A stretch of DNA of 64,000 nt from Fimicolochytrium jonesii (taxonomy: Eukaryota). The notes below the pieces were generated by a model. It searched no databases. It was not told where the DNA came from and was given only the letters and a program-made list of their open reading frames with translations. The DNA is taken from assembly GCF_025526975.1 (NCBI RefSeq), contig NW_026515668.1, forward strand, positions 62,001-126,000, written 5' to 3'. Below are positions 4,411 through 43,001 of the stretch, piece by piece. Made by a program: the position numbers and the translations under genes. Position 1 is the stretch's first letter, and every line of letters begins with the position of its first letter.

Positions 4411-7400
4411 TCACGACTCGTCGGTCTCAGCCACGGCCTCAATCGGATGCGAGTGCGACGATGCCGGCGGTGGTGCGTTGACGAGCACGTTGGTAGCGCT
4501 CGTTCCCGGGTTGCCGTGCCAGAGGGTCGAGTAAAACCTAAAAACAAAACGGACATCAGCAAACCCATAAATCAAGGCCATCATCTCACCAAAGGGAAAG
4601 TAAGCAACAACCCACCTCGAAATAATACTAGCAACCGGAATCTGTCTCGGCCCAGGATCAATCCCCTCCAACGTCGCCACAAACTTCCCCACCCATTTCC
4701 CAACCTGCTCGTCCTCATACACATCCCGCCTATACCGCAACCCGCCCACAATCGTCCCTTCCCCCGTCTCGATCAGGTGTAATTTCACATGCGCGTGGGA
4801 TGTTTCATCGTGGGTCCAACTCACACCGTCGGAAGAGGAGGAGGCGGCGTGGAGGAGGATGTCGGCGGGGGAGAGGCCGTAGGAACGCCACATCTCGGCT
4901 TCTTTCTGGGGTGTGTATTCGAAGACGATGGGGAGGGCCGTTGCGCTCGGGGTGGGGATCTTCCAGCTCGGCGTCCCGGCGCCGCAGCGGCGGGCCGCGC
5001 GGATACTCCTGCTCACGCTCCCAAACAGCGCGGAGAAGGTGATCCCCTTCCTGGTCAGGTCGATCTTCACCGGGAACGTGTCGGAGACGGGGCCGACCGC
5101 CAACCCGTTCCGTCGGAAACTGTGGGTGAGCCCGAGGAGGTATTTGTCGGACCCGGAGATGTGTTTGAGGACGATGGCAAAGGCGGAGAGACACGCGGCG
5201 GCCGTCGCCGTGCTGTACGCCGTGGTCGTCGTGCCGTGCCGCGCGCCGAGGGCGTTGTTGGTATCCTCTTCCTCCTCGTCGTCGTGGGTCTCCACATTCG
5301 AGCTCTCGGACGTTCCCCCACCGCGTGATCGCGACCGGGACTGTGCACTCCGCCTGCCGCCGGTGCCCGTCCGCGCCCGCCGCCGCTGCCGGGCCGTCGC
5401 GCGGTACCCGTCCTGGAACAGGCGGAGGTTGCTCACAAGCTCCGCGGGGAGCGTGATCGGGACCATATCCCACATCTGGGTGAAATCCTCCCCCTGCTGC
5501 GGCTCGGTAGCCCCACCCCGACCCCCGCGCAACGCGTACCCCTCCAGCCCCAACGGCGCCACCTTCACCTCCACCACCGGCGGCCGCAACACTCCCCTCA
5601 ACCGGATCCCCAGATCATCGTCCCGCTCCACCGCCGCCTCGGCATCTCGCAACTGTGTGTCCAACCCCTCCCGTTCCCGCACACACTTGGCGATGCGTCT
5701 CTCCAGCGCATGTTTCCGCTTGCCGCTCTCCATGATGGTTTCCTTGATCCTGTTCCGGACGTACTCGATCAGCGCGAGGAGCTGGCGGCGGTCTTTGGGC
5801 AGCAGGGCGAGGGTGTGCGTGAGGTGGGAGTCGGTGAGGGCGGCAAAGTCTGTGATCTGGGTGAGGTTGTGGTCCTGCAGGAGGGTGAGGACGGCGGCGG
5901 GGACGTCGTGTTTCAGGAGGAAGGGGAGGATCGACCCGGGCTCGGTGGGGGGCGTTACCACGAAGGAGGTGGAGTAAGGGGTGGTGGAGGAGTCCGCGGC
6001 GGGGGGGCGGGTGTCGAGCCCGAGGACGGTTTCGAGCAAGGTGAGCTGCGAGTCCCGGGAAATCAGGTGCACGGACCCCGTCGTCGGGTCCTCCCACCGC
6101 ATACACTCCCCCGCCGCCGCGGTCGTGGCGTTTGGGTCTTCTCCTTCATCCTCCATCCCCCTCCGCTGCTCCCGTAACCCCTCCAACTCCCCCTCACACT
6201 CCCCCCGCCGTTTCCTCAACTTCTCCACCCGGTCCTTCAACCCTTCCTTCTCCCGCTCCAGTTTCTCCAACTGCACTTCCAACCGTCCCCGCTCGGCGGC
6301 GTCGACGGTGTCTTGCACGGTCTCGATGAGCACGGAATGCCAGTAGGCGAGGTCGCCGCGGGTGTGGTGGGACGTGGTGGCGAGGGAGGTTGAGGTGGGG
6401 GTGCAGGAGTGCGCGAAGAGGGGGAAGGTGTATCGTTCGCGGGGGGTGTACCCATCAACGCACACATCAATCCCCCGTGTCGATGAAGGGGATGCGAGAC
6501 GGGCCGTCTGACACGTCGTGTAGAGCGCAATGACCTCGTGCGCGATGAACCGCAAGCTGGACTCGTCCGCGACGGCTTTGGAGGCCATGAACACCACATA
6601 CGTCTCCTGTTCCGTCCCTCCACCGTCCGAAGATACAACCCCCGGAAACACCAACGCGTAAAACGGCCGCTCGAACCGCTCCTGACCGCCCATCCAGTGC
6701 CGGACGTACGACGTCATGGTGCGTGTGTCCACTTCACGCACTTCGTGATGGTCAGACCTCCCACGCACCCATCCCCGCAGATCAACGACGGCCACAACTT
6801 CATCGTCCCGAACCTCCCGCCACGGCCGCTGGTCGAGCAACCCCTCGACGTCGGCATCCACGATCCGGTCGTTGCGGTACAGCTGCGTGCGGAGGACGGC
6901 GTGCGTCTGGCGAATTCTTTTCAGCACCGCCGCCAAATCACTGATGACCACCGACGCCGGCTGGGTCACAGATGGATGGTGATCTCGTGGTTGTGCTTGT
7001 GGGTTTGGGATAGGGGCCACCCGCCACCCCACACTCGCCCAAAACGGCGGCCCGCTCCACAACGACACGTTGCTCTCCAGATCGTCTTGTGTCGGACACA
7101 CTTTCGTGAACACAGTGAGTTGGTACGGGGTGACGGGGTACTTTGCGTCTGTGTAGTCGTCGTCGTCGTCGTCATCGAGGGCGTCGTAGGAGGTTGAGAA
7201 GGTGGGGTTGACGTCGGAGAGGGGCGAGGCGCTGCGTGGGAGGGGGAGGGAGTCGGTGGAGAGCTGCGGCGCGGGTGGGGTGGGTGGGCCTGCAGTTTTC
7301 TTTGCCTTGTCTGTATTTTTCGCGCCCTATCAATAAGCCCGCACGAGAGTGTTATGTATGCGTCCAATACGCTCCACCCGTCAACAGCTGTGATCCGAAA

Positions 7401-8520
7401 CGCCCAGAAAAAAAACCAAACATACCTTCGCGCCCGCCACGGTCGGTTTTTTGGTACTCGCATTCCACCGCGGCAACTCCAACGGCACCGACGCCGCTTT
7501 CTTCTTCCCCACCTTTCGTTTCCCCTTCCCCTTCCCTCCCTCATCGTCCCTCTCCGACCTCCTCCTCCCCGCCGATGTCCCGGACGCATCCGACGCAATC
7601 GACGCCTGGCTCGTGCGTGCGCTGCGTGACAACAGTGGCCCGTCGTCCGCGGAGGGGTCATCACCCGGTTCGGTGTCTGCGGGTTTACCGGTGATGGTGG
7701 TAGAAGGAAACCGGCGGCCACCGGACCCCGGGCGGCCTTTATCGATCGGTAGCGGGACGGGTTGGATGGAGATGGAGAGCGGGGAGGTGGGGGTGAGGTC
7801 TGTGAGTGAGGAGTGGTGGGAGATGGGGCGGGTCGTGCGCGTGGAGGACGGGGTGGGGGAGGTGGTGAGGTATTCTGAGCTGCGTTTACCGGCGCTGGCG
7901 GGCCGGCGAGTGGGTGAGGATGATGTTGATGTGGGGAGTGTGGTTAAGGAGGATGGAGGGAGGCTGTCGCGCTTAGTTGAGCCGGAGGTGGGTCGACGCT
8001 GGGCGGACGGTTTCTGCGGCACTGGGGTAACCCCGTCGACCTGTGATTTGACACTCAAGGACGGCAATGCTCGCGGCGGGATCGGGTGCCGCGGGGCGAT
8101 GACGGGGTCTGGGCCCCATAGGGTGCCGTATGAGGCGTGTAGGGACATTTTCCGCTTTTGTCTGGTTAATGCGTCGCTGGCGGCGTGGGTGTAATGCGAT
8201 TGTTGCTGAGATGGTTGTGGTGAATGAGGTTGTTGTTGCTGGTGATGTAGCAGCTGTGAATCTTTCTGCGAGTTCATGAGGGCGGCGTGGCTGCGTGTCT
8301 TGGAGAGGCGGGCGGTGGGGACGGATGTTGTTGCGGCGGCGGCAGCGATGATCGATGCCGGAGCGGGTTGTTGGGATGATAATGAGGAGCCGGTGGTTGT
8401 TGGTGACGAGGACAGGATCTGCTCCCGTTTGCGGGCGACCATTTCGCGGAAGGTCGTGCGCTGGCCGGCGAGACCGGCGGCGGGGTCGGCCGCACCGTGG
8501 AGTTGATGGACGTCCATCAT
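4411..8520 (-). CDS. Large protein: low-complexity N-terminus plus an NRPS condensation-like domain interrupted by a coiled-coil/SAM-like/coiled-coil insert
   Basis: ORFs 7381-8520 and 4411-7113 join through intron ~7425-7327 (GTATGT...TAG); a second short intron lies near 4615-4538. C-domain motifs seen: YPVTPYQ, HAVLRT, DLAYW, LSAFAIVLKHISGSDKYLLG, VGPVSDTFPVKIDL, GGLRYRRDVYEDEQV. Confidence 0.75.
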
Positions 8521-9135: not shown

Positions 9136-10629
9136 ATGGACGTCGAAACAGCGTCTGTTCACTCGGAGACAGCATCGGACTTTTCCGAATACTCCCGAGC
9201 CTCTACTGCTCCCTCCACGGCAGTCTCTACAGCGGCCTCGTCCGCCACCACCCACTCCGCCCACCCGTTCACATGTCTCGCATGTCACGTCGCGTTCCGC
9301 ACGGCAGAGAACCAGCGTGAGCACATGCGTTCAGACTGGCACAGGTACAACCTCAAGCGGAAAGTAGCCGACATCCCACCAGTCACAGCCGAGAACTTTG
9401 CGGCGAGGGTGCAACAGCAGCAACAGCAGCAGGCACTGCAGAACGCTGGATCGAGGAAGGAGGGCGGGGGTGTTGGCGGGTTTGTCGCAGAATGCGCGGC
9501 GTGCAAAAAGTCCTACTCGAATGAGAACGGATACACGAATCACTTGAACTCAAAGAAACACAAAGAGACGCAGGCGAAATTCGATGCAAACGGCTCTGAA
9601 CATGTCGCACTCCCCACAACCGGCAAACGACCCGCCCCCGTCGTGTCCGGCCCCACCCCGCGCGCATTGATGCCCACACCCACCACCGCCTCCTCATCCT
9701 CCTCCTCCGACCCAGCAGCGGCACCCGTTAGCTGGCGCCGCCAACTAGCCGACGCCGAAACACAAGCCGAAGTGCTCGCGATCATGGAACGCAAAGCCGC
9801 CGCAACCGAACGCCTAACCGAGCTCGACTGTCTCTTCTGCTCGCAACGCTGCCAAACTTTTGAAAACAACCTCGCCCACATGGCCCGCGCCCACAGCTTC
9901 TTCATTCCCGACATGGAGTTCCTCGTCGACCTCAAAGGCCTGATCGCCTACCTCGGCGAAAAGATCGCCGTCGCCCACGTCTGTCTCTACTGCAACGGCA
10001 AGGGACGCGCATACCACTCCCTCGAGGCCGTCCGCAAACACATGCTCGACAAGGGTCACTGCAAGATCCTGTACGAGGACGGAGCCGAGCTGGAGGTGGC
10101 CGATTTCTACGATTTCAGCTCCACCTACCCCGACGAAGTCGCTGAAGACGACGAAGACGACGACAACGCGGAATGGGAAGACGTTGACGACGAGACCGAC
10201 GAAACCACCCCGTCCTCCTCATCCCGCGGCCGCGCAGCACGCCCTACCACCACATCAGACTCCGACTCCGATTCCGAGCTCGGCGACCTCACCTCCCACC
10301 CCCTCTCCATCCACCTCACCCCCGACGAAACCCAACTCGTCCTCCCCTCGGGCCAACTCATCGGGCACCGCTCCTACAACAAATTCTGGAAACAGTCCCT
10401 CAAACCCCTCTCCTCGAATAACGACTCGGTCGTCATCAACCAGCTCATGGGCCAGTACCGCCAGCTGGGCTACACGTCCACGCCGTATGAGGTTGCCGTC
10501 GCACACCATGAGCGCCGGATGCAGGCCAAGAAGGCCATGAGGAAGGAGCTGGAGTTCAAGGCGAGGACGGGCCAGAAACATAACAAGCTGCAGAAGCATT
10601 TCAGGTCCCAGATTGGGTTCGGGGTATGA
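9136..10629 (+). CDS. REI1: Cytoplasmic pre-60S maturation zinc-finger protein REI1/ZNF622
   Basis: FTCLACHVAF...QREHMRSDWHRYNLKRKVA, a second C2H2 finger, DCLFC...HMARAHSFFIPD...GLIAYLGEKI, LVLPSGQLIGHR and C-terminal NKLQKHFRSQI. Intronless. Confidence 0.95.
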   Translation: MDVETASVHSETASDFSEYSRASTAPSTAVSTAASSATTHSAHPFTCLACHVAFRTAENQREHMRSDWHRYNLKRKVADIPPVTAENFAARVQQQQQQQALQNAGSRKEGGGVGGFVAECAACKKSYSNENGYTNHLNSKKHKETQAKFDANGSEHVALPTTGKRPAPVVSGPTPRALMPTPTTASSSSSSDPAAAPVSWRRQLADAETQAEVLAIMERKAAATERLTELDCLFCSQRCQTFENNLAHMARAHSFFIPDMEFLVDLKGLIAYLGEKIAVAHVCLYCNGKGRAYHSLEAVRKHMLDKGHCKILYEDGAELEVADFYDFSSTYPDEVAEDDEDDDNAEWEDVDDETDETTPSSSSRGRAARPTTTSDSDSDSELGDLTSHPLSIHLTPDETQLVLPSGQLIGHRSYNKFWKQSLKPLSSNNDSVVINQLMGQYRQLGYTSTPYEVAVAHHERRMQAKKAMRKELEFKARTGQKHNKLQKHFRSQIGFGV

Positions 10630-11309: not shown

Positions 11310-14300
11310 TCACGACCCCGCACCTCCCATCTCAAACGCATAAACCTTCACAACCGCATCCGCACCCCCCGTAGCCATCTGATGCGTCTGCTCCGGGTGG
11401 AACTTGACCGCCCAGATCCCTTCGTCGTTCTTTTTGCGGTGCGATGTGTACTCTTGCACGCATTTGCGGGTCGAGAGGTCCCACCAGCGGAGGGAGCAGT
11501 CGTGGCCTGAGGGTAAGCGAAGGTGTGTGAGTGTGAGGGAGTGGGGTGGGGTTAGGGTGAGATGCAGGTAGGGGATTTGCGGGTTTTTTCACGTACCTCC
11601 GGTGGCGAGCACGAGCCCATCGGAGGAGATATCGGCTGTTGAGACTGAGTCTTGGTGGGCGATCATGGAATGTATGCATTGGCCTGTCGAAAAAGAGAGA
11701 AGTGTTTTGCGAGTTAGGCGTGGCTGAATGACGATCAATCAAGAACGACCGCAAGAAAGAGGAAGACGAACGCACCTGTATTCGTGTCAAAGATCCGGAC
11801 ATAGCGGTCCTCGTGACATGTGACGAGGAGAGGTAGCAGTGGGTGCGCGACGACCTTGTTGATTTGGGACCGTACGGTGCCGTCTAACGTGATAAAACAA
11901 AGCAAAAAATGAGAATAATACTCAATGGAGTGAGGCCATTTAACAGGCAGGAAAAACGTGCTCCAAGATTTCCAAGCACCTTCGTCCCGTTCGCCATCGC
12001 CCCAAAACCCAAAAACCTACCATAACTCTCATCACTCTTACACCTCAACACCTCCTGCCCCGTCTCCGGGTCAAAGATCTTCACCATACTATTCTGATAC
12101 GACACCGCCAGCCGATTCAGGTTGGTATATATCCAGTCGACAGAGGTCGGGTTCTGGCCCTCGGTCGTGCCCCCCGGCTCGTTGATTGCGCCGCCGTGGC
12201 TCGCGCCGTTGTACCATAGGGTCGTGCGGAGGCCCCATTCGTCGGGGGTGGTGTTCCAGAGTTTGAGGGCGCCGTCGCCGGAGACGGAGGCGAGCCAGGG
12301 GCTTTGCTGGGGGAGCGGGTGGAGTTTCAAGTCCCAGATTACGTCGGAATGGCCGACGTAGGTGTGAAGTTTGTATTGGTTGGCTTCGTCTGATGGGAAA
12401 TTTACGGAGGTATGGTGTGAGAGGCCTGCACATAGTGACTGCTGCACGACAATGGTGGAACTCACGGTAGCTGCCATATGGATCCCTAGACGGTGGTGGT
12501 ATCCGCCACGCTCTTATCGTCGCGTCCACACTCCCTGTAAAGCATGTAGACCCATCGGCCGACAGGGCCAGTGATGTTAATGGCTCCGTATGTCCACGCA
12601 ATGTATGCAGCGGCTCTATCTCGGCTGACGCTCTGAGAGAGAAAAAAAAAATGAGCCGGAATTGCACCAGCCCCTCTCGAATCCAGAAAATCATACCTCG
12701 ACCGCTCATCCAATCGACTCAGATTCCATATCTTTGCCGTCCCGTCCTCTGACGCGGTCACGAATGCGTTATCCTGAGTAGAGAACGCAACAGCTCGGAT
12801 CGAGTCGAGGTGGCTGTGCAAGAAAGGAGTCACGGCATGCATCAGTTACCCACGCGCCTCTGAATATCGCTGTTCATGCATTCCTCTGTACTCACTTTCT
12901 TAGCAGAACTTTGGGCCGCCATATCCGTTGATTCCCGAGTTGCTTTTTCCCACCTTTCTTCTGCGATGATCGTGAGTAAACTCGGCTGACATGGGAAGCA
13001 TCTCGAAGCACCTCCCACCTTCGACCCCTCGTTCGTGTCCTCGTCGTTCAGAGCTAATGACGCCAGGCCATCGTTCTCGAACCCTATCGCGTTGCCAACC
13101 ACAGATGGTATTTGGGTGGAACTTGCCACCTCTGGGATATCAGGGGATGTTAGCCCGTCACGAGGGCCTTCTGATCAATAAGCAGATTGCCGCGTTCCCT
13201 TACCGTTATTCTTCTTTTTATTGGCAGGTTTGCCCTCTATCCTGCTCATGACTTTATTCACTTTCTCAGGAGTGAGCTTCAGTTCATGCATCTCATCTGC
13301 CGTCTATTTCATCACCAAATAAAAGGATGTTAGGTCGTTGTGATCCATTCTGATCCCCTTCAATGCCTTCATTTCCCTACCAGTCGTCCGTCGTCCAGCA
13401 CCGTAGGCTTGCGCGACCCTTGCGGAAGTTTCCCATTTTCTCGTTTCTCATGTTTCGACTTTGGTCCAGCAGTCGGTTCCGCCCTTACGACCTCCTTCTG
13501 CGGCCTGCTTTCCGTGTGATTATCAGACTGCTTTGTGTCGCTGGTTCGGGAAGAGAGATCTATGGAAGGTTCGAGGGAGGGAGCGGCTTTTGGGGGCGAT
13601 CTCTTCTCTGCTGGCGGCTCCTGGTGCACGGAAAGATGATTCTCCTTCGTTGGTAACATCTTTGCCGTCGCTTTCCGCCCGATGGTGACGCTCCGTTGAG
13701 CTCCAGTCTCATTTGGAGCTCCAGCGGTCCCCTGCTCTCCTCCCCTTCCCGGGGGTCGTCCCATCAATGGTGAATCGATCGAGATGTCGTCTCCGACATC
13801 ATCTGATTTTGTTTCAGAGCCCGGTCCTCCTCCCGTGGTCATCAAGAACCCCATCTCCTTGAGGTAACTATTTAAGAGGAAAGTAATAGCGACCCGTCAG
13901 GGATTATCCAAACGACTGAAGATTGCACCTAATAGCCATCCATACTTTTTCAGGATTTCCTTGCTACGCGCATGCCCAAAGCCTTTCGTGTAGTTCAACG
14001 ATGTCCCTAGCCCGCCTCCCAGGTTCAGCGTTCCATAATTCGCGGACGCCGCCAGCACGTTTTCCGGCAATGCCGCTGGCGGTTCCGAGACGGTCGCGGT
14101 ACTGGCAGCAGCATTGTTCTGACTCGCAGCGGTAGCATCATCAGAGGCCGTGACGGATGATCGTTTCTCTTGTTGCAGTTTAGTAAACTTTGTTCTATAA
14201 ATGTTATACGTAGGTTCGCGAAAGTCATCTGGTCAGTTGTTGCTTGCTCTGAAGGACACGGAGAACAGCACGAATGACATCGACCATCATACCTTTCTTG

Positions 14301-14728
14301 CCGTAACGCATACTCTAGCATCTTTACTCTCCGCATCAGATCAGTTCGTAGGTTCTCTGTTCCCCTTCTCTCGCCTTCTAGAAACGCGATCTTGGCCTGT
14401 AATTCGGAAGTGAGGACACCGAGTGAGGATCTTCTCACATTCAAGACCTGTTCTTCCGTGCCTCGGAAGTGGGCTTCCCAGCGCATCGGATGCTTGCTTC
14501 CTCTGCCGAAAACGTGCATACCTTAAGATCAGACTTCTCAATTTCCCACTCATTTCGCTCTCGTTCGAACCGCCGCCATTCCATCTGGAGGTAGTGTAAT
14601 ACGCCAGGGAGGGAGTATGGAGGGTGACCCCCTTCTTGGCCCGCCGTATGCATGCCCTCAGAAGCCGCGGAGCCACCTGCCGGCGGACCGCCACCGCGGC
14701 CTCCTGCGTGGCCTTGTGGGCCTGACAT
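11310..14728 (-). CDS. STRN: Striatin (STRIPAK scaffold, Far8/PRO11-like), multi-exon
   Basis: N-terminal YSLPGVLHYLQMEWRRFERERNEWEIEK and AKIAFLEGER...DLMRRVKMLEYALRQER. C-terminal WD40 repeats include SHLDSIRAVAF, TASEDGTAKIWNL and GHDCSLRWWDL...MATGGADAVVKVY. Confidence 0.93.
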
Positions 14729-15241
14729 ACGGGGGGATGGTCAACAGAAGGGGAAATCTGGGATGACCGAGGGTGTTCCTGTGAATGTCGGTCTATCTGG
14801 CTCAAGTGTATGCGCGAGTACAGAGGGTTGGCAACGAGCGAGGGTGAATTCGGCGTAGACTTCAAACGTCCGAATGTCGGCCGGGGTGCTTGGGCGACCG
14901 TTCTATGTCACGGTGATCTTGGGGGGGGGGGGCAGTCAGTCCGTTGGGGAGGTGTGTATGTATTCGTCCGGCGCAAGGGCCCGTCACCCTCCGACAGCTT
15001 CCACTTCACATCACAAAGGCATCCTGAATCCCAGGCTGTTTGAGGCGGATGCAAAAGCGCGATGCCCAGATTAGCGCGACATTAGAATCGCCTCCGGAGC
15101 GTGCTGGCTTTTTGATTAGGCGGGCGCCCACCGCTTTTGACCGGTGGTTTGCGCTGGCTTCCTGAGAGGAAGGACGGACGGACTCGGAGGAAACAGCACA
15201 ACATCAACCGGCAACGCACTGCATACGTCCCAACACTCGAT

Positions 15242-18240: not shown

Positions 18241-19472
18241 CCTTGGGGAGTCGGTGATGTTAGATACTGGCTAACGCGGCTATCTCCTAAGAGATGCGGG
18301 TTCCCGTGAGAAAGGCGGAGACGAACGACTGACAGTGTGAGGAATGACAGCGGCTTATGTCACGCGTTTTCCTCCCAAGTTTTGGCTTTGCGAACAGACC
18401 GGAAGTTCGTCCATTCGGCCCTGACACGCTTGGCTCCATGAAGATCGATCGCTAGACTTCTTCTTCGTCTATGAGGGCTGTCCGTGCACGAGCTCAAGCT
18501 TCAGGAGGCCATCTTATGTACTGGTGCACAAATGGTTGGTAGAGTAACAGCAAGTTCGCATTGCCGGGTTGTGAATGGCCCTTCAAACCGGATATGTCTG
18601 ACTTCATCGCGCCTGTTTTGTTTCGTGGATCAGGAGCAAAACTATTGGATTGGAGGAGGTAGAGTGGGACGCGGCGGCACAGCACTGCTCAAACCATCGC
18701 ATTACTGTCGGTACGCATAGTTCGAGAGGGCAGATGGAGAGCCTGAGAATCGAAGCATACTTACGATACAAACTTGCCGGCGAAGATGTCTGCTTTCCGT
18801 GCAACGTTTTTCTTGTCCGCTTTTCCTTGTAAGAAATATTGAGTATGGAACAAAGCGCCGTTGAAAACATGTCATCTTCAACCGGCTGTTCGGCGTTCAG
18901 GTGTGGCCACCGTGTTCCGAGGTCTCGGATGCAAAATCACTGACAGGTTCGCCCGTCACTTTTTCATTTTACCGCAGCGGCCAAGATTGGACCTTCCTGT
19001 TCTTCTTCTGCTATGACGTGGGGCATGCAGCAATCCGCCATCGGGGTTCTCTATCTGTGTCGTCAGAGAGGCACCTCAGCGTGTCCCCTTTTTGTCACAT
19101 GCCGTCAGTCGAAAGTCCAGAGTTTTTGTCCCTGTTCGTCCAATTTGCAAGGCACCCCCCCGACTTTGCTCAAGGGAACAGACTCTTGGGTTGCGTTTTT
19201 TCTCAGAGTTTGTTTTTCAAAGGGTTTGCGTTCCAGCGGTTCACGAGAAGCAGCAACGTCGGCACACACTAAAGGAAAGTGTTGACACCCTGACCCCCCA
19301 ATTGGAAGCTGTTTTGAGTAAAACTGAAGGTGAGCGTGCTCACGCCTACTACTATGCATTCAGCCTCCCAATCGGGGTCACCTTTCCAAATCCCAGTTAG
19401 CGGTGTCGGCGCTATCGATTTTCTTGACTCACTGAAACTCAAGCTCCAGATCTACCCGCCTTGACCGTAACC

Positions 19473-21143
19473 ATGCCTCGGAAGTCTCAGAAGATTTCCT
19501 GCCCTCCTGCCCCCAAGGCAGTACCGCCAAATGTTAGGCCGCAGGTTCAGGGGTGGCTTAACGCCGTTGACAAATACGCATCCGAAGTCTCCGACGGCAA
19601 ATTCACATCCATGGCCCTGCCAAGCATGACTCTCGATGAGCTGAACGGCTTTCTGCAAGGCTTCTTTCGTCAGCTCAAAAGGAAAGATGGCTACCTGTAC
19701 CCTCCCACATCCATAGCCACCTGTTTCAGGTCGTTGAACCACTATATCAGGAGCACGCGACAGGATGGGCTGGACTTGAGTAAAGATGAGCGATTTGCAG
19801 TATTGCGGGAGCTTGTTGAGACAAGGAAGCTACAAGGAGCAACACTCGCGGGGAGTGAGACGTGGGGAGCGCACGGAACTCGATCCGTCAAGAAGGCTGC
19901 AACCAGGCAAACCGCCAAGAAGACTCCAACCCTTCAACCACCAGAACAGAATGCTGGGAAAAGGAAGGAGCGGCCAAGTCCATCTTCCTCAGAGATCAGC
20001 GATGTCGAGGATTCTTCTGAGAGCCAGGAAATCGAGATCACGGACAAGGCGGCCGAGCGAACGGAACCCGCCAGCGACAATGCAGTCAAACAGATGGCTA
20101 TGGAAACAGAGGCACCCAACGTCCGCCTCCACGAGCGGGAAGATACACCCGCCACGGCACACATGATCTCGGAGAGCTCCGTGAACATCTTTTCCGACGC
20201 GACCAGCGACGAAGATGAGGAGGACGCAGTTAGCGACACTGATAGGGCCAGCCAGCGAACGTTCGATGACTCCGACTCATACTCAGACCTCAATGTGAAC
20301 GATCTGAACACAGAGCCCGCCGCGCCCGTGCTTCCGTCCGATCGCACGCTTCCTCCCTGTGAGGAGATGGATGTTGCTCTGCAAAAGATTTTGAGCCAGC
20401 GGAAACAAGGAGTCGGCACTAAAGCGACTACGCAAGACCGCAATTTGCAGGCGCTGGAAACACAAGGTTTTAAGACGGTCAGACGACTCGCAAGAAACAC
20501 GATGATGTTTGGCTGTGACGATCGGCGACTTCGGTCTCCGACTGGTGCTGGCGAAACAGTGAAACTCACGAGCAGTGTGCGGACCAGGGGTGAAAACGGC
20601 GCGAGCGGACACCGGCCATTGGATCAAGGCGGAATTCAGAAATCGTCGGAACTCGTGAATCAAGAAAGCCGATCGAGCAATGGCAGCGGCAATCTCATGA
20701 CAGCAATCCCCGGAATGAGCACGCAATCAGTGCTCCCCGACACCAACCACGGAAACGGGAAGCCCCCCCAGGAAGTTCAACCCCCGGACGTGGTGGGCCC
20801 CATCCGGCGACACACCCTTCCGCGCACCCAACTCGCAACCCATAATCCATTCCTGACCTTCCCCAATATCGGGAACATGCTCCCGAACGCCGCGCCCATC
20901 GGCATGCTCCGCCCCTACGCCTACTCTCCGAGCACCACCGCGGATCAGCGGATGTACTCGCCGCCAATAAATTCGCCGCCGATTTACTCGCCGCCGCCGC
21001 CGCCGCCGCCTACGGCGCCCGTATGGGACTTCCATATGACGGCCGCGGCGTTGCGGGAGGGCGGCGTGTTTGAGGGGTTGGCGGGGTTGCTGATGTCGGC
21101 GTCTCGGGAGGGTGGAAGGATTGCGGTGCATTTTGATTCGTAA
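19473..21143 (+). CDS. Intronless protein with an N-terminal Crypton/DUF3504-associated (ZMYM/QRICH1/KCTD1-like) domain and a disordered remainder
   Basis: TLDELNGFLQGFFRQLKRKDGYLYPPTSIATCFRSLNHYIR...DLSKDERF resembles the ELNxxLxxFxxxxRKxDGxxYPPxSL motif of Crypton-derived proteins. Confidence 0.7.
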   Translation: MPRKSQKISCPPAPKAVPPNVRPQVQGWLNAVDKYASEVSDGKFTSMALPSMTLDELNGFLQGFFRQLKRKDGYLYPPTSIATCFRSLNHYIRSTRQDGLDLSKDERFAVLRELVETRKLQGATLAGSETWGAHGTRSVKKAATRQTAKKTPTLQPPEQNAGKRKERPSPSSSEISDVEDSSESQEIEITDKAAERTEPASDNAVKQMAMETEAPNVRLHEREDTPATAHMISESSVNIFSDATSDEDEEDAVSDTDRASQRTFDDSDSYSDLNVNDLNTEPAAPVLPSDRTLPPCEEMDVALQKILSQRKQGVGTKATTQDRNLQALETQGFKTVRRLARNTMMFGCDDRRLRSPTGAGETVKLTSSVRTRGENGASGHRPLDQGGIQKSSELVNQESRSSNGSGNLMTAIPGMSTQSVLPDTNHGNGKPPQEVQPPDVVGPIRRHTLPRTQLATHNPFLTFPNIGNMLPNAAPIGMLRPYAYSPSTTADQRMYSPPINSPPIYSPPPPPPPTAPVWDFHMTAAALREGGVFEGLAGLLMSASREGGRIAVHFDS

Positions 21144-24054: not shown

Positions 24055-27000
24055 TCATTCCCCCATACCGTTATCGGGCCTGCCAAAAAGAGCAAAAATC
24101 AACATGTTCAGCGAAAAAAGACCCAAATCCAAGCCACAACTCCGTCACGAAAAAACCTACATCTCACTCGGCTTTAACAACCCCGGCACCTGCAACGCCT
24201 TCTCCAGCTCGCTCTTCTTCTTCAGTTCCGCCTCGGCTTCCCGCTCGCTCAGGAAAAGCTCGCTGTTATCCGTGCCCGAGAATTCCTACATCCAACAAGC
24301 AGGGTCAGTTCACAATCAACGCGTGCAACCGGGGGATGTGATTTCATCATACCTTCAAGGTAACCAAGAAATCACGCAAATTGGTCCTGAACGCCGGTTC
24401 GTCTGAGCAGGTGGTGAATAAAGCTACGACGACCTTTTGTATTTGCGCGCTGAACCAAATCAGAAAAGAGTCGTATCAGCTACACACTCCCGAAGAACCT
24501 TCCACCCCAACAACATACAAAATCAGCGTTTTCTCTTATCTCACCTCTGCAAATGCGGAAACGCCCTCTGCAACAAATCCATGACATACTCCCCAACAAA
24601 GCGCTGGTTGGTCATAGTCGGATCCGGCACCTGCGCGCGGTCAAACAGCGGCACCGTCAGCTTCGGCGGCTGCGTCGTGTCGGCTACCAAGGTGAACATC
24701 TCGCGGAGGATCATTGTTTGGAGTTTGAAGCCTAATAAATAAATCACCGACAAGTCAGTAACCGTGCCTTTCTGAATCCCAACCACAACCCACTCCGATA
24801 CATACCACTCTTATGAAACGGATTCGTCAACACAAAAAACACATCCTGCAACAGACTCAAAAAGTAACTCTGGTAGAACCCGCTCGCGGTCACGGGGTCG
24901 GCCAGTTTCTCAAAGTTTGTAAACATCTCTAGGATGATCGTGAGGCCAACGTCGCTGATGTCCCGCATCGTGTGCTTGAAAGCCCACACGATGCTGTCGA
25001 GGAAAAGCCGGAATTGGGGGGGTGGGAGGCGGAGGAGGGCTGAAATCAAGGATCTTTTCAGCAGCAGGTAAAGCGGATACGAAGCAGATGTTGGGAGCTC
25101 GTTTTGCCCACCTTGGAAACAGTTTTTGTTAATAGCCTGCATCAAGCTAAAGAACCCAACACGATGTTCAGGGTAATCCTCAAAGTTGTTATTGATCATA
25201 TTCAACGTCGATTCAAACACAGCGTCAAGGATGGCAGGAACCTGCTCGTTCATAGCACTCTGACAAACAACTCAAAAAAGTCAGTGTCATACCTCAACAA
25301 ACGTCTTCACAAACACACACAAACCACCCACCTCAAGCTTATTAATGATATTCGCCAAAACATGCAACACAAACGCATCCTTCGCCGGCTCGACGCTGCG
25401 CGCATAGTCGCTTAGCACCGTCTCGAGGAGGGGCGGGATCAGGTTGTGCATGACGGTGGCGTGGTCTTCCGCTTTGCTGATGTAGGTTTGGACGAGCCGG
25501 AGGACGTCCTTTTTTATCGTGCGGAGGACGCGGACTGTTGGTGTTACCGTTGCGATGTATCCTACATGAACAAATACAATTGATTAAAAATCTTGGTTCA
25601 AATGCCCAAGAAAGATCCAAGATTGACTCACCTTTGACCTCAATCTGCTGACAAATCAACCCGCCCACCGCAGCATACAGCGCTAGCAAATCCAGGTAGT
25701 TGCGCGCAATCTGGATATAGAACGTAGCTCCGACGGACGTGCAGGCGGATATGTTCGTTTTGATGATGTTGGCGAGCATCTTGACCGTTTCCGGATTTTC
25801 GAGGATGTTGGGCTCGATGCGCGCTTGGGCTATGTAGTTGTCCCACTATTATTTGAGAGGGAAAGGGGTGATGAGGAAAGCAGAGGGTATGATAATTCCC
25901 AGCTAACGAATGTGATCGGTTTCAAAACGTACCGCGCGGTTGGCCCCCTCCATAAACCGATTAATAAGCCGTTCCTGCGCCCTGCGCTCGGACTGCGCAG
26001 AGATGATGTACCCGACCGCTTCATAGAATGTATGCAGCTGCGGGGTAGCCAGATCGCTAGTGATGATATCCATCGAGTCGAGTATCTCGTCAATGTACGG
26101 CATGTGCTCGTTCAGCTGCTGGGCGACAAAGTGTCGTTTGCATTTTTGCGCGATTTTGATGAAGGTGTCGCATGCCATTTCCTGTACACCTAGAGAAAAC
26201 AGACCAAAGTTACGTGTAAGTTCCACCAACTCATTTACCGTGTCACGCTCACAAACACTGCTCGCACATTACCTTCATGCATCTCATGCATAAACTCAAA
26301 CAACTTATTCACAACCGTCTTCAAAAACTTCCAATGCGCCTTCAAGAACCGCGGGTACTGCCCCACAATATACATGATATTCGACGCAACGATCGCTTTA
26401 TTATCCTTGCCCTTCTTGATCTCGCACAGGCTGAGGAGCTCCTTGATGACCGTGACGAGGAACTTCTTCTCGACTTCTTCTGACATGGCCATGCTGATGG
26501 AGCCGATTGCCCAGCAGAGCTTGTTGAGGTTTGTCCAGGACCATTCGGAGCCGTCGGCCTGTGGGAATTGGATATCTGAGTTGGGTTGACATTCGAGAAA
26601 GATGTTCGAATGAGAAGTGGGAACCTCACCTGTCCCCTCAGCTTATCCGACATGATCCGTTCCATATCCTCCACATCCAAATGCGTGCAATACACTAGCG
26701 TCTCCCGCATACTCTTATACAGCACAATCGTATCACTCTCCTTCAACGACTCTCGCACAACCTCTCCCTCATCGTTCTCGACAACAATGACTTCCTCGGG
26801 TTTGACCATCTGCTCAATCATGATGGTGCGCAGCCGGGACAGGACTTCGGGGTACATGTCCTTCCTCATGGGTTGGTTGTTGCCAAAGGAGGAACGGACG
26901 CCGGCGAGGTTGAGGAGGGGGACCTCGACGGTTCCGGGGAAGGTGTGTTTTTCTTCGTACAGTTCTCCGACAAGTTTGTACCAGTATTCCAGGCAGATCT

Positions 27001-28432
27001 TGAACAGCTCCCGATCGTCGACCGCGGAAATGGCGAGCAGGTACCGGTGGCCGATGATGAGATGTTGTTTCAGACTCGTCTCTACGAGGGTGGCGGATTC
27101 AAGCGCCTTGACATGTGCACTGAAGAAGCTGGTCAGGAAGAGAGCGAGGTTTTGCACGAACTGCTGGTCGTTGTCCGAAAGGTCGTCCCAAGTGGCTTTG
27201 AGGTCAGTCTCCACAGGAAGCATAGCTGGTATGCTCTCCACGGTGATCGAGTATAACTTCACAAACTTTTCATCGTACGCCGGTTCGTGGACTTGGAGGG
27301 CCGCAATCTCCGTCAAACACTTCAGAGACACATTTCGAAACACCGGAACGGTGAAAAACCGCCGTTCCAAAACCTCAATAAGGTTGGTCTCAAAGATATA
27401 CCCCAACGGAATCCAGTTAAGAAACCTCAGCAATGTCTCCAGCGTCGCGTTGATCAAGCTCGGCTTCTGCGCCTTTTCGAGGACTTCGTGGCAGAGCTGG
27501 AAAATTTCGGAGAATTCGGCACACATGGTGTTTTTCAGGTTTTTCGCTTTGACGGACGTCATTTGCTCGGCGGAAAAGTCGAAGATCTCCTCGCTGTAGA
27601 AGAATCAGGATGTGAGCCCACAGAGTGGTGAGCTGGGTCAAAACTTAAGCACAACATACCTCAGCAGCTTCAGGATGTTCATGTTGTTCTCGCATAGTGA
27701 GAGGTTGCTCTTGCTGGCTGTGACGAGCTCCGGGATGAACGTCGGCCAGTTATGTGGCCACTCCTGCTTCAATATCTTTGAAAGCGTTTTCGTCAGCCAT
27801 GCCAACAATCGGTCCCTTGCATTACGCAGAATACGTACTTGCACCAAAACGATGTTCAATTTCGAAAGCAGCAGGCGGTTCTTCTCCAGTGTCTCGTCGT
27901 CGGACGAGTTTTTGATGATGAAAGCAACAATGAAATTTTTGATGCCTAGGGTTTGTGGGACACTGATTGAGCAGGGTGCCAGTGGTCTCTTCCAGGTGTA
28001 TCCGATCCACGTACCTGCTCGCTGATCTTCCGGCAGGATCTTCCACATGCTCTTGATCAAGTTCTCCAGTATGGACAGTGCGATATACTGCGAGAGGTAC
28101 GGTGAGAGGTGCCCATCAAACGATCCCAGAGAAGTTTGCCAGACACCTACCTTGGACTGCAAAACCTGTGACCGCTCAAGGATAGCGTCCACCCTCTTCC
28201 AAGCGTCGGGGTGCTGCCTGAATTGCTCGAGGACTGTATTCGCCACCGATTGCTGCAACGGGCATCAGTGTCAGTGCCCCCTACACATTCATGTTCCTGG
28301 CATCTCACCAAAAGAGGTCTGCGTCGCAGATGACCCTGTCCTTACCTCTGGCCCATACACAAACATGGCGTTAACGACGCCGTCGAACAGCCCAGTGTCT
28401 AGATCACCGCTAAAGTCCAAGATGCCCTCCAT
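24055..28432 (-). CDS. CRM1: Exportin-1 (CRM1/XPO1), multi-exon
   Basis: [137 protein letters not shown]. Confidence 0.97.
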
Positions 28433-29105: not shown

Positions 29106-30571
29106 TCATTGCTCGCAAACATCACCCTCCACAATACAAAGTGGATCGAGACATGCCTTTGGTTGCGTGCATCCCCAAGCTCCTCCATCTTTCATCATGA
29201 TTATGTGCGAGGTGAAGCCAGTGCTCTCGAAAGCAACATGTGAAGGAGACTTGGCGAGTTCCTTGGCCGGCTTTCTTGAATATGTGCGCAAAGCAGTCCG
29301 CTCGTAACTCTGAATGCGGGGCGGGCGATGGATGGTGAGCATTTTTAGCATTCATGTTGATTCATCGCTCTTCGCTCTATATGTTTTGTGTCCGAAGTCG
29401 AGCGTGCTTTCGGACATCGCCAGGACATCGTGCACATCCGTCCCACAGTCGCGAGGAGATCCCACGCACTTACTCCTGTCGGCCGGCTCGACCTTGAGGT
29501 TCGTCCCGCACTTCGAGGTCTGCTGTCCCGTGTAGCCGGTGGGACAGGGCGCCGACACAGGCATGTCCACCTTCGTGTCTGCGAAAACGCCGTCCGATGG
29601 GCAAGTCATCGGCACACATCCTGACGTGTTTGTATCCCAGATGCCGGTATCTATGCACGTCCCGAGCAGACTGCCGGTGTAGCCCGCAGGGCATGATGCC
29701 GTTGCCGTATAGTTGATGCCTCTGGTGGGGAACGTGCCGTTATCCAGGCATTGCGTAGGCTTAGGGATGCACTGGGATTGATCGATCACGAACTGGCCGT
29801 TGACACATTTGGCCGACCGTTTCCCGGTGAATGCGTACGGACATGAAGCCCATTGCACAGTGCCATCCGGGACCGGAGTCCAGAGGCCACTAGTGTCCTT
29901 GCAATCTTGCGGCAAGGCCACACATTGGCTGTCGTCGATGTAGTTGGAGAAAGTCCCGTCCTCCTTGCACAGCGCATATCGCAGGCCGCTGTAGCCGACC
30001 CGACACGGGGCCGCGCCCTTCTCACCCGACTTGGTTGCCGGCCACACTACGCCGTTGACCTCGGTCTTAGGGCAGTCTGTCGCACGAGAGCATCCGTCCA
30101 TTGTACTGCTATTCTCGAACCCCTGAAGGGTGCACTTAGTCCTCCGCATGCTCCTATAACCAGTCAGACAAGGCGCCTCGCTGTAGCCGCCAACGGACAG
30201 CTCGGGAAACCCCCCGTCCGCATCGCATTTCTTTGCACGGCAATCAGAGACGTACGACTCCGCATCGGTGCCCCAGGTCCCGTCCGGTTTGCAAAATTGT
30301 TTGGAGAACGTCCCGGTGTAATAGTCACTGGGGCATCCCGCAATCTCGCTCCATTGGCCCGGTTTCCTCCTTGGGTGAACGTCTCGTTAGGCGGACAGTC
30401 AGGCGCCGGCGTGGTTCCGCCTGAAGCCTCAGTGCTGCTCTCGGATTGGGCGGGGTGCTGCTCTCGTTGCTCACAGTCTTGGGGCGGAGGAAGTACCACC
30501 CGCCGCTTAACCCGGTCGCCATCAGACAGCTGCAGAGCAGGGCCACAAACAGGACAATAATAGTCACCATG
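29106..30571 (-). pseudogene. Frameshifted Cys-rich surface/secreted protein with tandem HRM-like (C..W/F.....C..G..G....C...G.W.....C) repeats
   Basis: Hydrophobic N-terminus MVTIIVLFVALLCSCLMATGLSGGWYFL. Frameshifts near 30445 and 30365 link to GQWSEIAGCPSDYYTG...CPKTEVNGVVWPATKSGEKGAAPCRVGYSG.... A stop at 29352 is followed by a Cys-rich tail to 29106. No introns. Confidence 0.7.
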
Positions 30572-32798: not shown

Positions 32799-34043
32799 AT
32801 GACCAAGCGGAAACGAGACAACAAAGAGAACACGGCTGAAGTCACCAAAACCCAGAAGCCCCGCCTGCAAGGTTGGTGTGGTGTGTCCATCTCATTGAAC
32901 TAAGCGGTGGCCGTTCATTGGGGAAGCTACGCTACGGCCGTAGGCTGGTGTGGTGTGGTGTGGTATATATCGTCCAGTGGGTCACTGGCTTACCCAACAC
33001 ATCACCCAGAGACACCAACCATTCCGCCGGACTACGCTCGTTTCAAGAAACGATGGCTCAACAACCTCCTACGGCAACTGACGAACAAAAGCAGAATGCG
33101 CATCGCTGCTTTCGATCTTGACGCCGTGATACCCACGCTTTCCGCTAAACGTCAACCCAACACAATCACGAAACAAGGAAACGTCATAAGAAAGAAGACT
33201 CCCCAATGAGTTTATATGAACGAGATCTCGTTGCCGTCCTCCAGCACCCGGTCTTGGATAGAGGTATGAGCTAAATAGGAATGCTTTCCTTTCCGAGGAA
33301 AAGGTCCAATGCACTTCCAATCCCCAGCCATCTGCGTTGCAGAAGATGCAAAGGGCCTCCCGCTGTTCGCGTACGTCAATAACGCCGTTCATACGACAAA
33401 TATCGCCGATTTGAACAAAGCCATCCAGCAAATGATGGTAGAATACCCAACCAGCCTACTGAAGATGGACGATGCACGTCATGTAACATTCCCAGGGCAA
33501 CCGAAAGAATACGGAGCATGTAATCTGGGAATCTGGCAAGCGCAAGCGGCAACAGTGCCTTCCATCTCTGCCGAATCCGCCGTCTACCGTCACACAGCGG
33601 CTCAGAGCTTTCTGTGCTCCGAGGTCTTCCGGCGGCTCTGTTTCTCAGTTAGTCTGATGTTCGACAAGGTCGACCCGGGCATGGCAAAAGAATACCGGGA
33701 AGCGTTCAAACGGATGGCACCAGAGCATCAAGGATTCTGGGCTTCAAACCCCTACCAGAATTCGTTCGCGATGGTTGTGCTTGTCATCCACGAGTACGTT
33801 CTCAAGCATCGTGACCTGAAGGACGCCAAACACGGATGGTGTGCTGTCGTGTGCCTCGGCGACTTCAAAGACGTTAAATTCTGTCTTCCCGGTCTGGGGT
33901 TGCGTATTCCTTTTCAACCTGGCGATATTTTGTTCATTCGCTCCTTTGCTTTGGAACACATGGTTCGCAAGTGGCAACCGGGCTATCGATACACTATTGT
34001 GTTTAAAATGCACCAGCTGATTCTGAATGGAACCCCTGTTTAG
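32799..34043 (+). pseudogene. TET/JBP-family 2OG-Fe(II) dioxygenase (fungal KDZ-transposon-associated type), 5' part disrupted
   Basis: HRDLKDAKHGWCAVVCLGDF...CLPGLGLRIPFQPGDILFIRSFALEHMV...YRYTIVF gives the HxD...H...R signature. Same-frame upstream stops at 33207, 33267 and 33276. A basic N-terminal exon MTKRKRD begins at 32799. Confidence 0.8.
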
Positions 34044-36435: not shown

Positions 36436-37625
36436 TTATGCCATGCTGTGGTCGGAAGAGAAAATACGTCAATGAGATGATCGTTTGTTGATAAACGTAT
36501 AGACGTGTCTCAAAACACATACCTGTCAATAAGCGAATCCCTCATCTGATTCACAATATACGTCGGCTGAGCATCCTGCAGCTTGAAGATGCTTTCTATC
36601 ACACTCAGCTCCGTCGACGTCGTATCCAGCCCAGAGAACGCGCTCCAGTCGTTCACCACCAACCCAGCTCCAATCAAGTCCGAACCGCGGTTGACCGTTC
36701 CCGCCACCAACGGAATCTGCAACAGCGACGAGAGCTCGTCCTGGTCCTCCACGGAGGTCTTTGGGTGCACGAGGCCGCCCTGGTTTGAGAGCGCGCAGTA
36801 GGATCCGACGAGGACGTTGCCTGCGATGGTTTGTCGGAAGACTTCGACTTTGAGTGCGTCGGCGATGATTTCTTCCGTCTCGCGGTCGACGTCTGGGTGC
36901 ACTAAGGCGACGTAGTCGTTGCAGGCGATGACGTTGCCGAGGGCGGAGAGACGCTCTTCGACGCGTTGGATGGCGACGGTGTCGGGGAGGGAGTTGCGAA
37001 GGTGCTGCATTTCTTGGTCGGTGGTGGTGTTGGGGAGGAGGAGGCCGTGGCGGTTTCCGGCAGTCAAGCGGCCGATGATACGGGTGCCGCCGATGGAGGT
37101 GTGGACGACGGGGACGACGTCTGCGAGCTCGGATTCGAAGACGCTAAGTGAGAGAGGAGGGAAGGATAGAGATTGAGAAGGTGTCTTGTACGGCTTTGCA
37201 TACGAAAAAGGCTTGTTCGAGAGAATGGGCTGATCTCCTGCAATTCCACGGGGAGCTTCCTCGCCAGCGGGATTCTCCATGGGCTGAACCCTTCTAGTGA
37301 CCTCCGTGCTTTCCATACTCTCAACCATCCTCCCTATATCATCCCCCACTTCCACGTCCATTCCGATCCGCATTCCAACTCTGCCATTCCTCCTTCTCAC
37401 AACTCCAGCGTCCCCTTCCAAAGTTCCCTGCCGTGCGGGCGGAATCCGGATATGTACCTGTAGAAGTTCTCAGAGCCGCCGATAGCGACGAGAGCGTACG
37501 AGTTTGTGAGACGGGAGAAGACCCCAATGTCGTTGCTGTTTTCGAATTGAGCACCTGTTCGAAACCATGCGTGAGTAGGAGCGGACGGTGGGAAGTGGCA
37601 CTCATTTGACCTTACGAGTAGCCAT
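36436..37625 (-). CDS. TIF6: Eukaryotic translation initiation factor 6 (4 exons)
   Basis: [42 protein letters not shown]...[16 protein letters not shown]...[20 protein letters not shown]...AGTVNRGS. Last exon completes DSMA*. Confidence 0.97.
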
Positions 37626-38166
37626 TTTGGGTGAGTTTTCGGGGGGGTTGTTGGGGGAGTAGTTGACGGGGGTTGGGTGGAGGTAAAGAGGAAGGGGGTT
37701 AGGTCGAGTAGGACGACGACTGCCAGTTGCCAGACCGTCTGTCTGTGTGTGTTTTGTGTTTGCTTTTTGAACTTTTGCGAAGGGATTTCTCAACGCGCTG
37801 GTCCACCCACCCTCCCCCTACTGCGAGACTCCTATTGTGGAGCCTCCTCGCAAATCAGATTAGAACCCGCGCGGGCTGCTAAGTAAATCATGTCATGTCC
37901 GTCTTGCTCTCTCTGCATGACTCGTCAGACTGACTGCGCGAATAGATAAATCATCTGTCTGCCACAGGGTCCCACGTGCAGGGGCGGGAGCGCGCAACCC
38001 TAACCCCCCCGGGCGCAACCCAAACGGGCGTTGGCGAAGCGCTCCCGTTGGGACCCGACCGACGACAACAACAATCCTCGTCTTGACCCCCCCCAGAACG
38101 TCGACCTGTCGTTGCGCTATCTCCCCCCCTCCCCATCCTTCCTCATATACCGCACACGCAGCAAAG

Positions 38167-42627: not shown

Positions 42628-43001
42628 CTGTGGGGGTGAGGTTGTGTTGCTGTTCTGGGGGTTTGAGAGTCGACAGTAGGAGGGGCTGATGCCTGCTGAG
42701 CGTCTGTCCGATGCCCGCTCGAAAGACGGCGAAGGGAAGGGCGAAAGGGGAAGAGAGTGACGGCACGCGCGCTGTCGAAAAGGGCTCCCACGGCGGGCTT
42801 TTCTCGCCTTCGGACACTCTCGCTGTTCCACCCATCCCTCCTCGGCCTGGTTTCCCTCCGTGCCTTGCATACCTTCCAAGCGATTACATATATAGCGTCA
42901 CTTCTTCCAACCACGGTTTTCATTAGGTGTAAACTACAGTATATCATTCAGCCAAACCATCATCCCAAGCACAATCACACGCCCCAAAATCCTCCAAAAA
43001 A

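Follow-up and report, generated by a model that had tools for sequence, protein, structure and literature searches.

A gene of Fimicolochytrium jonesii (assembly GCF_025526975.1, contig NW_026515668.1) encodes, on the minus strand and in three exons, a protein of 1309 residues in which the fold of a nonribosomal peptide synthetase (NRPS) condensation domain is interrupted between its two lobes by a coiled-coil stalk that carries a SAM-fold domain at its tip. The gene runs from 8517 to 4411 of the window, by which we mean the whole stretch of 64,000 nucleotides that was analysed (positions 62,001 to 126,000 of the contig). We consider the overall architecture near certain, and the family to which the protein belongs is real, conserved and apparently undescribed. 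Its function is a more tentative matter: we put at somewhat under one half (about 0.45) the probability that this protein of zoosporic fungi is a non-catalytic scaffold of the zoospore microtubule or flagellar apparatus.

The split condensation fold and its insert

Against PF00668 the studied protein scores 18.8 bits, over a C-lobe stretch, where the cut-off is 30.6 bits, and its single-sequence match in the PDB is weak (E 0.0073). Four of ten close orthologues pass that cut-off and the best homologue reaches 66.9 bits, the best stretches again lying in the C-lobe only. A profile of 73 homologues, by contrast, matches both lobes of NRPS condensation domains (bacitracin synthetase, E 2e-14; McyB, 6e-10; the X-domain, 2.5e-09). 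The Pfam check proposed in the first-pass annotation thus fell short on the single sequence, the SAM segment drawing no Pfam hit, and it was the profile that recovered the two lobes. An NCBIfam scan of seven proteins gave nothing meaningful, and an Atlas feature search (clusters of at least 50 members) returned generic condensation or acyltransferase clusters only.

An AlphaFold model of the 842-residue core (mean predicted local distance difference test score, pLDDT, 87.2; predicted template modelling (TM) score, pTM, 0.77) superposes on the condensation domain of SrfA-C over 405 of 426 residues (Z 26.4; root-mean-square deviation, rmsd, 4.7). Since a superposition of that extent requires both lobes to be closed together, the lobes do reassemble in the model, as had been envisaged when the split was first noticed; an rmsd near 5 Å points to a different lobe angle or to model error. 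Every match listed by Foldseek for the core model was a condensation-type entry. An Atlas model of the Rhizoclosmatium orthologue, of lower confidence (pTM 0.48), gives the same picture (alignment over 468 residues; TM 0.74 by target), and closure into one condensation domain around the insert is predicted in these two independent models. Within the N-lobe, residues N90, I93, D95 and D97 of a family-specific hairpin are conserved at 95-98%.

All of the motifs that the first-pass annotation quoted are found, in order, in a single stop-free minus-strand frame (7326-4411): YPVTPYQ at 7140, HAVLRT at 6903, SKAVADE at 6582-6562, DLAYW at 6354 and ILPFLLKHDVP at 5931, and then in the C-lobe LSAFAIVLKHISG at 5190, VGPVSDTFPVKIDL at 5097 and GGLRYRRDVY at 4746. 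Given that the gene model is a prediction and that chimeric models occur in the family (P0012, P0025, P0026), one might suspect an annotation artefact, that is, two genes or an unspliced intron mimicking an insert. The single open frame and the high proportion of G and C at third codon positions within the insert (GC3 = 0.87) argue against this, and it is refuted by conservation, the insert being present at fixed length in all 60 two-lobed homologues across phyla, so that we find an artefact scarcely credible and regard the locus as one gene, as first described. These 60, out of 83 matches to the core sequence, all carry both arms of the stalk and the SAM segment, a count to be read as a consistency check because the segment profiles came from the same sequences.

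The catalytic motif has been lost, as had been read from the F. jonesii sequence. Neither the first His nor the Gly of HHxxxDG occurs in any of 65 aligned homologues, the Asp occurs in all 65, and the catalytic column holds 15 different residues overall, with His in one homologue and absent from 64. That one is P0049 from Synchytrium, whose motif reads SHTLCDE and which has either retained the His or regained it by chance. The stand-alone status of the protein likewise held up: adenylation and carrier families (AMP-binding, PP-binding) were found in none of 87 homologues scanned, and biosynthetic domains, these two included, in none of 115 of the 134 open reading frames (ORFs) of at least 130 residues in the window, the other 19 overlapping the studied gene or a neighbour.

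With the NRPS condensation domain (PF00668; SrfA-C 8f7g/2vsq, Txo1/Txo2, TycC, McyB) the family shares the two-lobed fold, recognisable C1, C2 and C-lobe motifs and the active-site Asp; it differs in having neither the catalytic His nor the Gly, an inter-lobe insert of 220-250 residues, no A or PCP domain, a long basic N-terminus and near-single-copy status. DxxxxD is the motif of Cy domains. Those domains (5t3e, 5t7z; Foldseek E 2.5e-09) also have a condensation fold without the catalytic His, but the first position of the motif in our family is Ser in 53 of 65 homologues and Asp in none, and Cy-type chemistry was rejected on that ground. The glycopeptide X-domain (4tx2, 4tx3, 6m7l; Z 23.8-24.8), a condensation fold with the degenerate motif HRIAADD that serves as a binding platform, may by analogy be the closest precedent for how the family protein works; X-domains, however, sit in a terminal NRPS module, recruit P450s (according to the entry titles) and have no insert, whereas the family gene stands alone. 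Judged by their hallmark residues and contexts, the family falls outside the C, Cy and X domains alike. Fungal Lys2 has an N-terminal condensation-like (ADA) domain, a degenerate condensation type within a housekeeping enzyme that has A, PCP and reductase domains; we know of no coiled-coil/SAM insert in Lys2.

It might be supposed that the cleft retains a ligand-binding role (for acyl-CoA, a phosphopantetheinyl carrier or a peptide) or performs histidine-free chemistry, with the stalk relaying movement of the lobes to the SAM domain as a sensor. Such a device would account for the retention of both lobes and of the Asp (65 of 65), for the 90-100% conservation of the C-lobe residues G663, G670, R676, G683, P684 and P690, and for the placement of the insert in the inter-lobe linker. 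These C-lobe residues are, however, also typical fold motifs of condensation domains, and the variety of residues in the catalytic column, the departure from DxxxxD and the absence of a partner enzyme within the window speak against it; on balance we consider a sensor of this kind unlikely.

The insert takes the place of the linker that follows the conserved YW motif, and measures 254 residues between the conserved W and P anchors, against 219-227 in most homologues; the first-pass annotation was right about its presence and too generous about its length, which it gave as about 280 residues. Predicted alone (pLDDT 90.4), the insert folds as a helix, a beta-hairpin with a helix, four short helices and a long helix, and both arms show clear heptad periodicity, its register breaking near the SAM domain. 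In a wide structure search the two long helices jointly align with the antiparallel coiled coils of IpaB, Smc, Rad50 and the dynein stalk (Z 9-11.6, a helix-generic likeness), and because these alignments span both arms we take the arms to pair antiparallel, in agreement with the stalk first postulated. Comparable in plan are the dynein stalk with its microtubule-binding domain (MTBD; 5ayh/8i3j), the Smc/Rad50 arms, the LSD1 tower (3zms) and the iSH2 region of p85, all of them antiparallel coiled coils within a globular fold and some with a tip domain (Z 9.6-10.4). The helical resemblance is generic and not homology, and the family stalk differs in being shorter, without an ATPase, and tipped by a SAM domain.

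The compact part of the insert aligns with the SAM domain of CASKIN2 over 66 residues (Z 9.8, rmsd 1.7), and further structural matches are the SAM domains of Hyphen, liprin, CNK, EphA5 and SHIP2 (Z 9.1-9.5); within the top 50 matches, all six that cover the compact domain (model residues 101-214) are SAM entries, at Z 9.1-9.8. Foldseek with the insert gave no significant match, SAM domains being mixed there with RAD51 N-terminal domains, which have broadly the same fold. By sequence, a SAM-only profile of 17 sequences retrieved five PDB sequences at E<=1, all of them SAMs, though weakly (best E 0.043), and Pfam applied to the same 17 stretches gave best E values of 0.048-0.17 in five family-member pairs, at chance level and below every SAM cut-off. 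With good structural and weak sequence support, we regard the SAM fold at the stalk tip, which had been proposed from the sequence, as well supported by the model. The matches to ANKS6 and BICC1 were rejected as a clue to cilia, their E values being 0.04-0.3. Like known SAM domains (CASKIN2, liprin, Hyphen/Aveugle, CNK, ANKS6, BICC1, SASH3), that of the family has five helices (Z 9.1-9.8, rmsd 1.6-2.6); unlike them, it is carried within an enzyme fold by an antiparallel stalk formed from the same chain, and it has no helix-5 glycine.

This last difference bears on the original description of the domain as a polymerising SAM, and on the arrangement that would go with it, a filament of SAM domains joined head to tail from which the pseudo-condensation domains project on their stalks. 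The fold would allow for such a filament, and so would the charges: a basic helix-5 start (K/R-D/E-R-R-K) is kept and the mid-loop region has acidic residues (E430 in 49 of 68 homologues, E/D437 in 59 of 68), and a basic helix-5 start with an acidic mid-loop region is the charge pattern of polymerising SAMs. Head-to-tail docking, however, needs a glycine where helix 5 begins, and that of the ANKS6, ANKS4B and BICC1 matches aligns to K/R and D/E columns in the family, where Gly is not among the four commonest residues (in the preceding column it occurs in 7 of 67). In the model, moreover, helix 5 continues straight into the stalk. Polymerisation is thus left unsupported, and we think the filament quite improbable.

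On the evidence of the mean share of the commonest residue per column (0.54 in the descending arm and 0.50 in the SAM domain, compared with 0.37 in the N-lobe and 0.46 in the main C-lobe) and of the fixed arm lengths, selection has shifted onto the insert. The ascending W-to-R span is 60 residues in 60 of 67 homologues and the descending Y-to-P span 61 residues in 65 of 68, the tip loops varying freely; K476, E480, R481 and R488 of the descending arm are conserved at 90-100%. One model, P0114 (R. globosum BCR33DRAFT_714469), seems to be without part of the descending arm (segment 568-625), possibly through a splice error.

The range first given for the element, 4411..7140, does contain the motifs, but the gene starts at 8517 and 426 residues precede the N-lobe, so that a basic extension had been overlooked. 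The exon 1 part of this extension has no Pfam hit, and outside its last 60 residues the extension of the studied protein has a net charge of +26. It is net-basic in 38 of 41 homologues and consists to about 30% of Ser, Thr and Pro.

Distribution and descent

A search with the single core sequence against 1.84 billion representatives gave the 83 matches; P0080, a repeat protein with a match of 47 residues, was rejected as a homologue. A profile search beyond the family found ordinary NRPSs only, at E 3e-13 or weaker, and the matches to bacterial NRPSs reflect kinship of fold and do not identify a donor. Two short DNA patterns, suited to close relatives only, matched metagenome contigs 236 times and prokaryotic genomes 155 times, and none of the matches was confirmed as a relative. 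In the sources, family members are labelled "hypothetical", "uncharacterized" or "condensation domain-containing" and nothing else.

Organism names are known for 24 of the 83 matches, the most divergent having been chosen for look-up, and all 24 belong to Chytridiomycota, Gonapodya, Blastocladiomycota or Rozella, with at least seven chytrid orders represented. The Chytridiomycota include Spizellomyces, Batrachochytrium, Chytriomyces, Lobulomyces, Synchytrium and Caulochytrium, and the Blastocladiomycota are Allomyces, Blastocladiella, Coelomomyces, Sorochytrium and Paraphysoderma. All of these named organisms we take to be zoosporic, and the correspondence with flagellated fungi that the first-pass annotation had thought worth profiling has so far held in 24 of 24. 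One match, P0048, shows an extreme bias to Asn, Lys and Ile (FYMINK/GARP 3.58); if it comes from an anaerobic gut fungus, which is a guess, the family would reach Neocallimastigomycota.

FastTree trees (68 of 73 rows; in a second tree 89 rows, without P0080; midpoint root) recover Spizellomycetales (support 0.99), Rhizophlyctidales (1.0) and a clade of Blastocladiales with Sorochytrium (0.99), and these clades are consistent with vertical descent. Support is weak at the deep nodes, and the branches of Paraphysoderma, Synchytrium and Caulochytrium are long. Five sequences (P0057, P0061, P0077, P0082, P0085) form a divergent clade (support 1.0) that includes a second copy from Chytriomyces sp. 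MP71, 28% identical to the first, so to judge from the tree a paralogue exists at least in that strain. Table S5 of PMC6572847 places the orthologues in OG0000425, an orthogroup that all 11 chytrid strains possess and that has two members in 8 of them; the S. punctatus orthologue in that table is XP_016609182. The divergent clade may be the paralogue behind these two-member rows, and the pairs could just as well have arisen from a chimeric gene model. Fusions to a cyclin, to Stm1/HABP4 or to a mitochondrial carrier (P0012, P0025 and P0026/P0097), each in one lineage, are probably chimeric gene models, and with this look of joined genes they were rejected as functional clues.

In searches of openly accessible full texts and supplements, neither the architecture nor the family was found described. 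The word "condensation" is absent from PMC13358043 and PMC6572847 and from the supplements of both, and the part of PMC8106346 available to us treats gut-fungal C domains solely as parts of NRPSs. Six family locus tags were not found in the searched literature. Among the supplementary files accessible, family locus tags are absent from those of PMC13358043 (2 files), PMC12659703 (1 file), PMC8887899 (12 of 13 files), PMC4457425 (3 files, with older gene ids) and PMC8371127 (9 files, one unreadable).

Possible role in the zoospore

Our preferred reading is that the His-less condensation fold would form the rigid base from which an antiparallel stalk of fixed length, with a SAM tip, extends, the reach of the stalk being roughly 8-9 nm in the model at 1.5 Å per residue. 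The base would hold one partner, the stalk would space from it a second binding surface, with the SAM domain and the conserved charged patch as its components, and the basic extension would bind an acidic polymer, most likely microtubules. We favour a site on microtubules or at the flagellar base because of the fixed length, the basic tail and the zoosporic-only distribution taken together; the link to the flagellum itself is inferred from the distribution alone. Electron-dense structures around chytrid centrioles are described in section 6 of PMC12659703 as having no known molecular identity. A fuller and more speculative version, which we judge possible though doubtful, is that an NRPS condensation domain was domesticated before the Rozella split as a fungus-specific spacer of kinetosome fibres or the flagellar base (a dead enzyme with a stalk of ~8-9 nm and a SAM tip), possibly as a heterodimer of paralogues, and was lost whenever the flagellum was lost.

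Distribution and anatomy would be identical if the protein were a scaffold for some other zoospore-stage or aquatic trait, such as ribosome or mRNA storage, zoospore cleavage or encystment, with the SAM domain and basic tail binding RNA or a signalling partner. Some SAM domains bind RNA, and the mS41 ribosomal SAM family is weakly matched by 3 of the 17 SAM stretches. That match (best E 0.048) is at chance level, however, and the best structural matches (CASKIN2, liprin, Hyphen, CNK, EphA5, SHIP2) are protein-binding SAMs; a stalk of fixed length would also be better suited to a spaced lattice than to RNA storage. We consider this alternative rather unlikely.

Several points weigh against a scaffold of the microtubule or flagellar apparatus. 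The absence of the family from non-flagellated fungi is indirect, with names for 24 of 83 matches and with 50% clusters that hide members, and although most matches without an organism name or look-up nest among the named chytrids, deep nodes are weakly supported. The argument from distribution is the weakest link: a single loss at the base of the terrestrial fungi would leave this pattern whatever zoospore or aquatic trait was involved. Because the query of the wide search was a single sequence and not a profile, remote homologues outside fungi may remain. Basic disordered tails also bind RNA, and the invariant Asp with the Synchytrium His make residual chemistry conceivable. Finally, no homologue was found among known flagellar proteins, since PMC13358043 and its two supplements contain neither the terms nor the four accessions looked for, though that atlas starts from known reference proteins. 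No X-box was found in the 640 bp upstream of the gene, a null that is uninformative here because RFX enrichment is absent at the ciliary promoters of S. punctatus, according to the portion of PMC10530576 available.

Gene structure, neighbourhood and significance

The database protein P0002 (1309 residues, source label "uncharacterized protein") is identical to the product of the region, with exons at 8517-7426, 7326-4616 and 4537-4411. The two predicted introns are supported because motifs of exon 1 recur in orthologues and because removal of intron 2 restores SRFYxxxW, which is contiguous in 8 of 10 aligned proteins. In a tblastn search of the window with nine family members only the studied locus was found; the window reaches only 4.4 kb downstream of the gene.

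Table 1. Features of the F. jonesii gene, in window positions
Feature	Position	Strand	Basis
Exon 1: start codon and 364 residues of a basic, Ser/Thr/Pro-rich, likely disordered extension	7426..8517	-	P0002 mapping; no Pfam hit; MVARKREQ and PRWNxST common to orthologues
LPRWNASTK (PxWNxS type), candidate binding motif in the extension	7450..7476	-	PxWNxS present in 15 of the 41 homologues whose extension exceeds 120 residues
Intron 1, 99 nt, GTATGT...TAG	7327..7425	-	Predicted
Condensation-fold N-lobe, residues 427-697, with family-specific hairpin FYRNxxIVDADV at ~6876-6850	6328..7140	-	Profile matches to NRPS C-domain N-lobes; model
SKAVADE, degenerate counterpart of the HHxxxDG active-site motif	6562..6582	-	Profile alignment to HHLVVDG/HHIILDG/HRIAADD
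Ascending coiled-coil helix, ~54 residues	6139..6300	-	Model helix 281-334; heptad periodicity; W-to-R span
Beta-hairpin and helix at the stalk tip, ahead of the SAM fold	6016..6108	-	Model; D351 conserved at 96%
SAM-fold domain, residues 830-884, fifth helix continuous with the descending arm	5767..5931	-	CASKIN2 SAM, Z 9.8; PDB sequence matches
Descending coiled-coil helix, most conserved region, with charged patch K476/E480/R481/R488 (842-residue numbering)	5587..5766	-	Conservation; Y-to-P span; structural alignments over both arms
Condensation-fold C-lobe with low-confidence Ser/Arg/acidic loop; end resembles a C-to-A linker	4616..5478	-	PF00668 positions 224-433, E 4.6e-05; profile; model
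Intron 2, 78 nt, GTGGGT...TAG, in frame, stop-free	4538..4615	-	Predicted; splicing restores SRFYxxxW
Exon 3: end of conserved C-terminal helix motif, tail and stop	4411..4537	-	P0002 mapping and orthologue alignment

Housekeeping genes, striatin and exportin-1 among them, surround the locus together with a DUF4112 gene. A gene for a REI1/ZNF622-like zinc-finger protein (9136-10629, plus strand) lies head to head with the studied gene across ~620 bp, and on the minus strand there follow striatin (11335-14907), exportin-1 (24747-28264), eIF6 (36513-37789), RMI1 (40771-42897) and a HECT ligase (61646-62868). An ORF at 29355-30386 (minus strand) encodes a hormone receptor domain (HRM, PF02793), which scores above the cut-off at E 1.2e-07, an extracellular module of the class B/adhesion GPCR type that is unusual in a fungus, and a weak match to a Tet_JBP oxygenase (E 5.3e-05, under cut-off) lies at 33279-34040 (plus strand). 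Two long plus-strand ORFs, at 19428-21140 (571 residues) and 43252-45399 (716 residues), have no Pfam match at E 0.001.

Within NRPS assembly lines, inactive condensation domains already have a known role as docking platforms. In the present family the fold has moved out of secondary metabolism, acquiring inside the domain a stalk with a SAM tip that four phylum-level groups of zoosporic fungi have retained. The family also shows that an insert of 220-250 residues is tolerated in the linker between the lobes of a condensation domain, and database labels of the kind "condensation domain-containing" can inflate the NRPS counts of chytrids. The family offers a concrete candidate for the zoospore structures that have no known proteins in section 6 of PMC12659703. 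If the protein is indeed a structural spacer, it would give a first molecular handle on the zoospore ultrastructure that is used in chytrid taxonomy, and a fold of secondary metabolism would have been recruited into the cytoskeleton.

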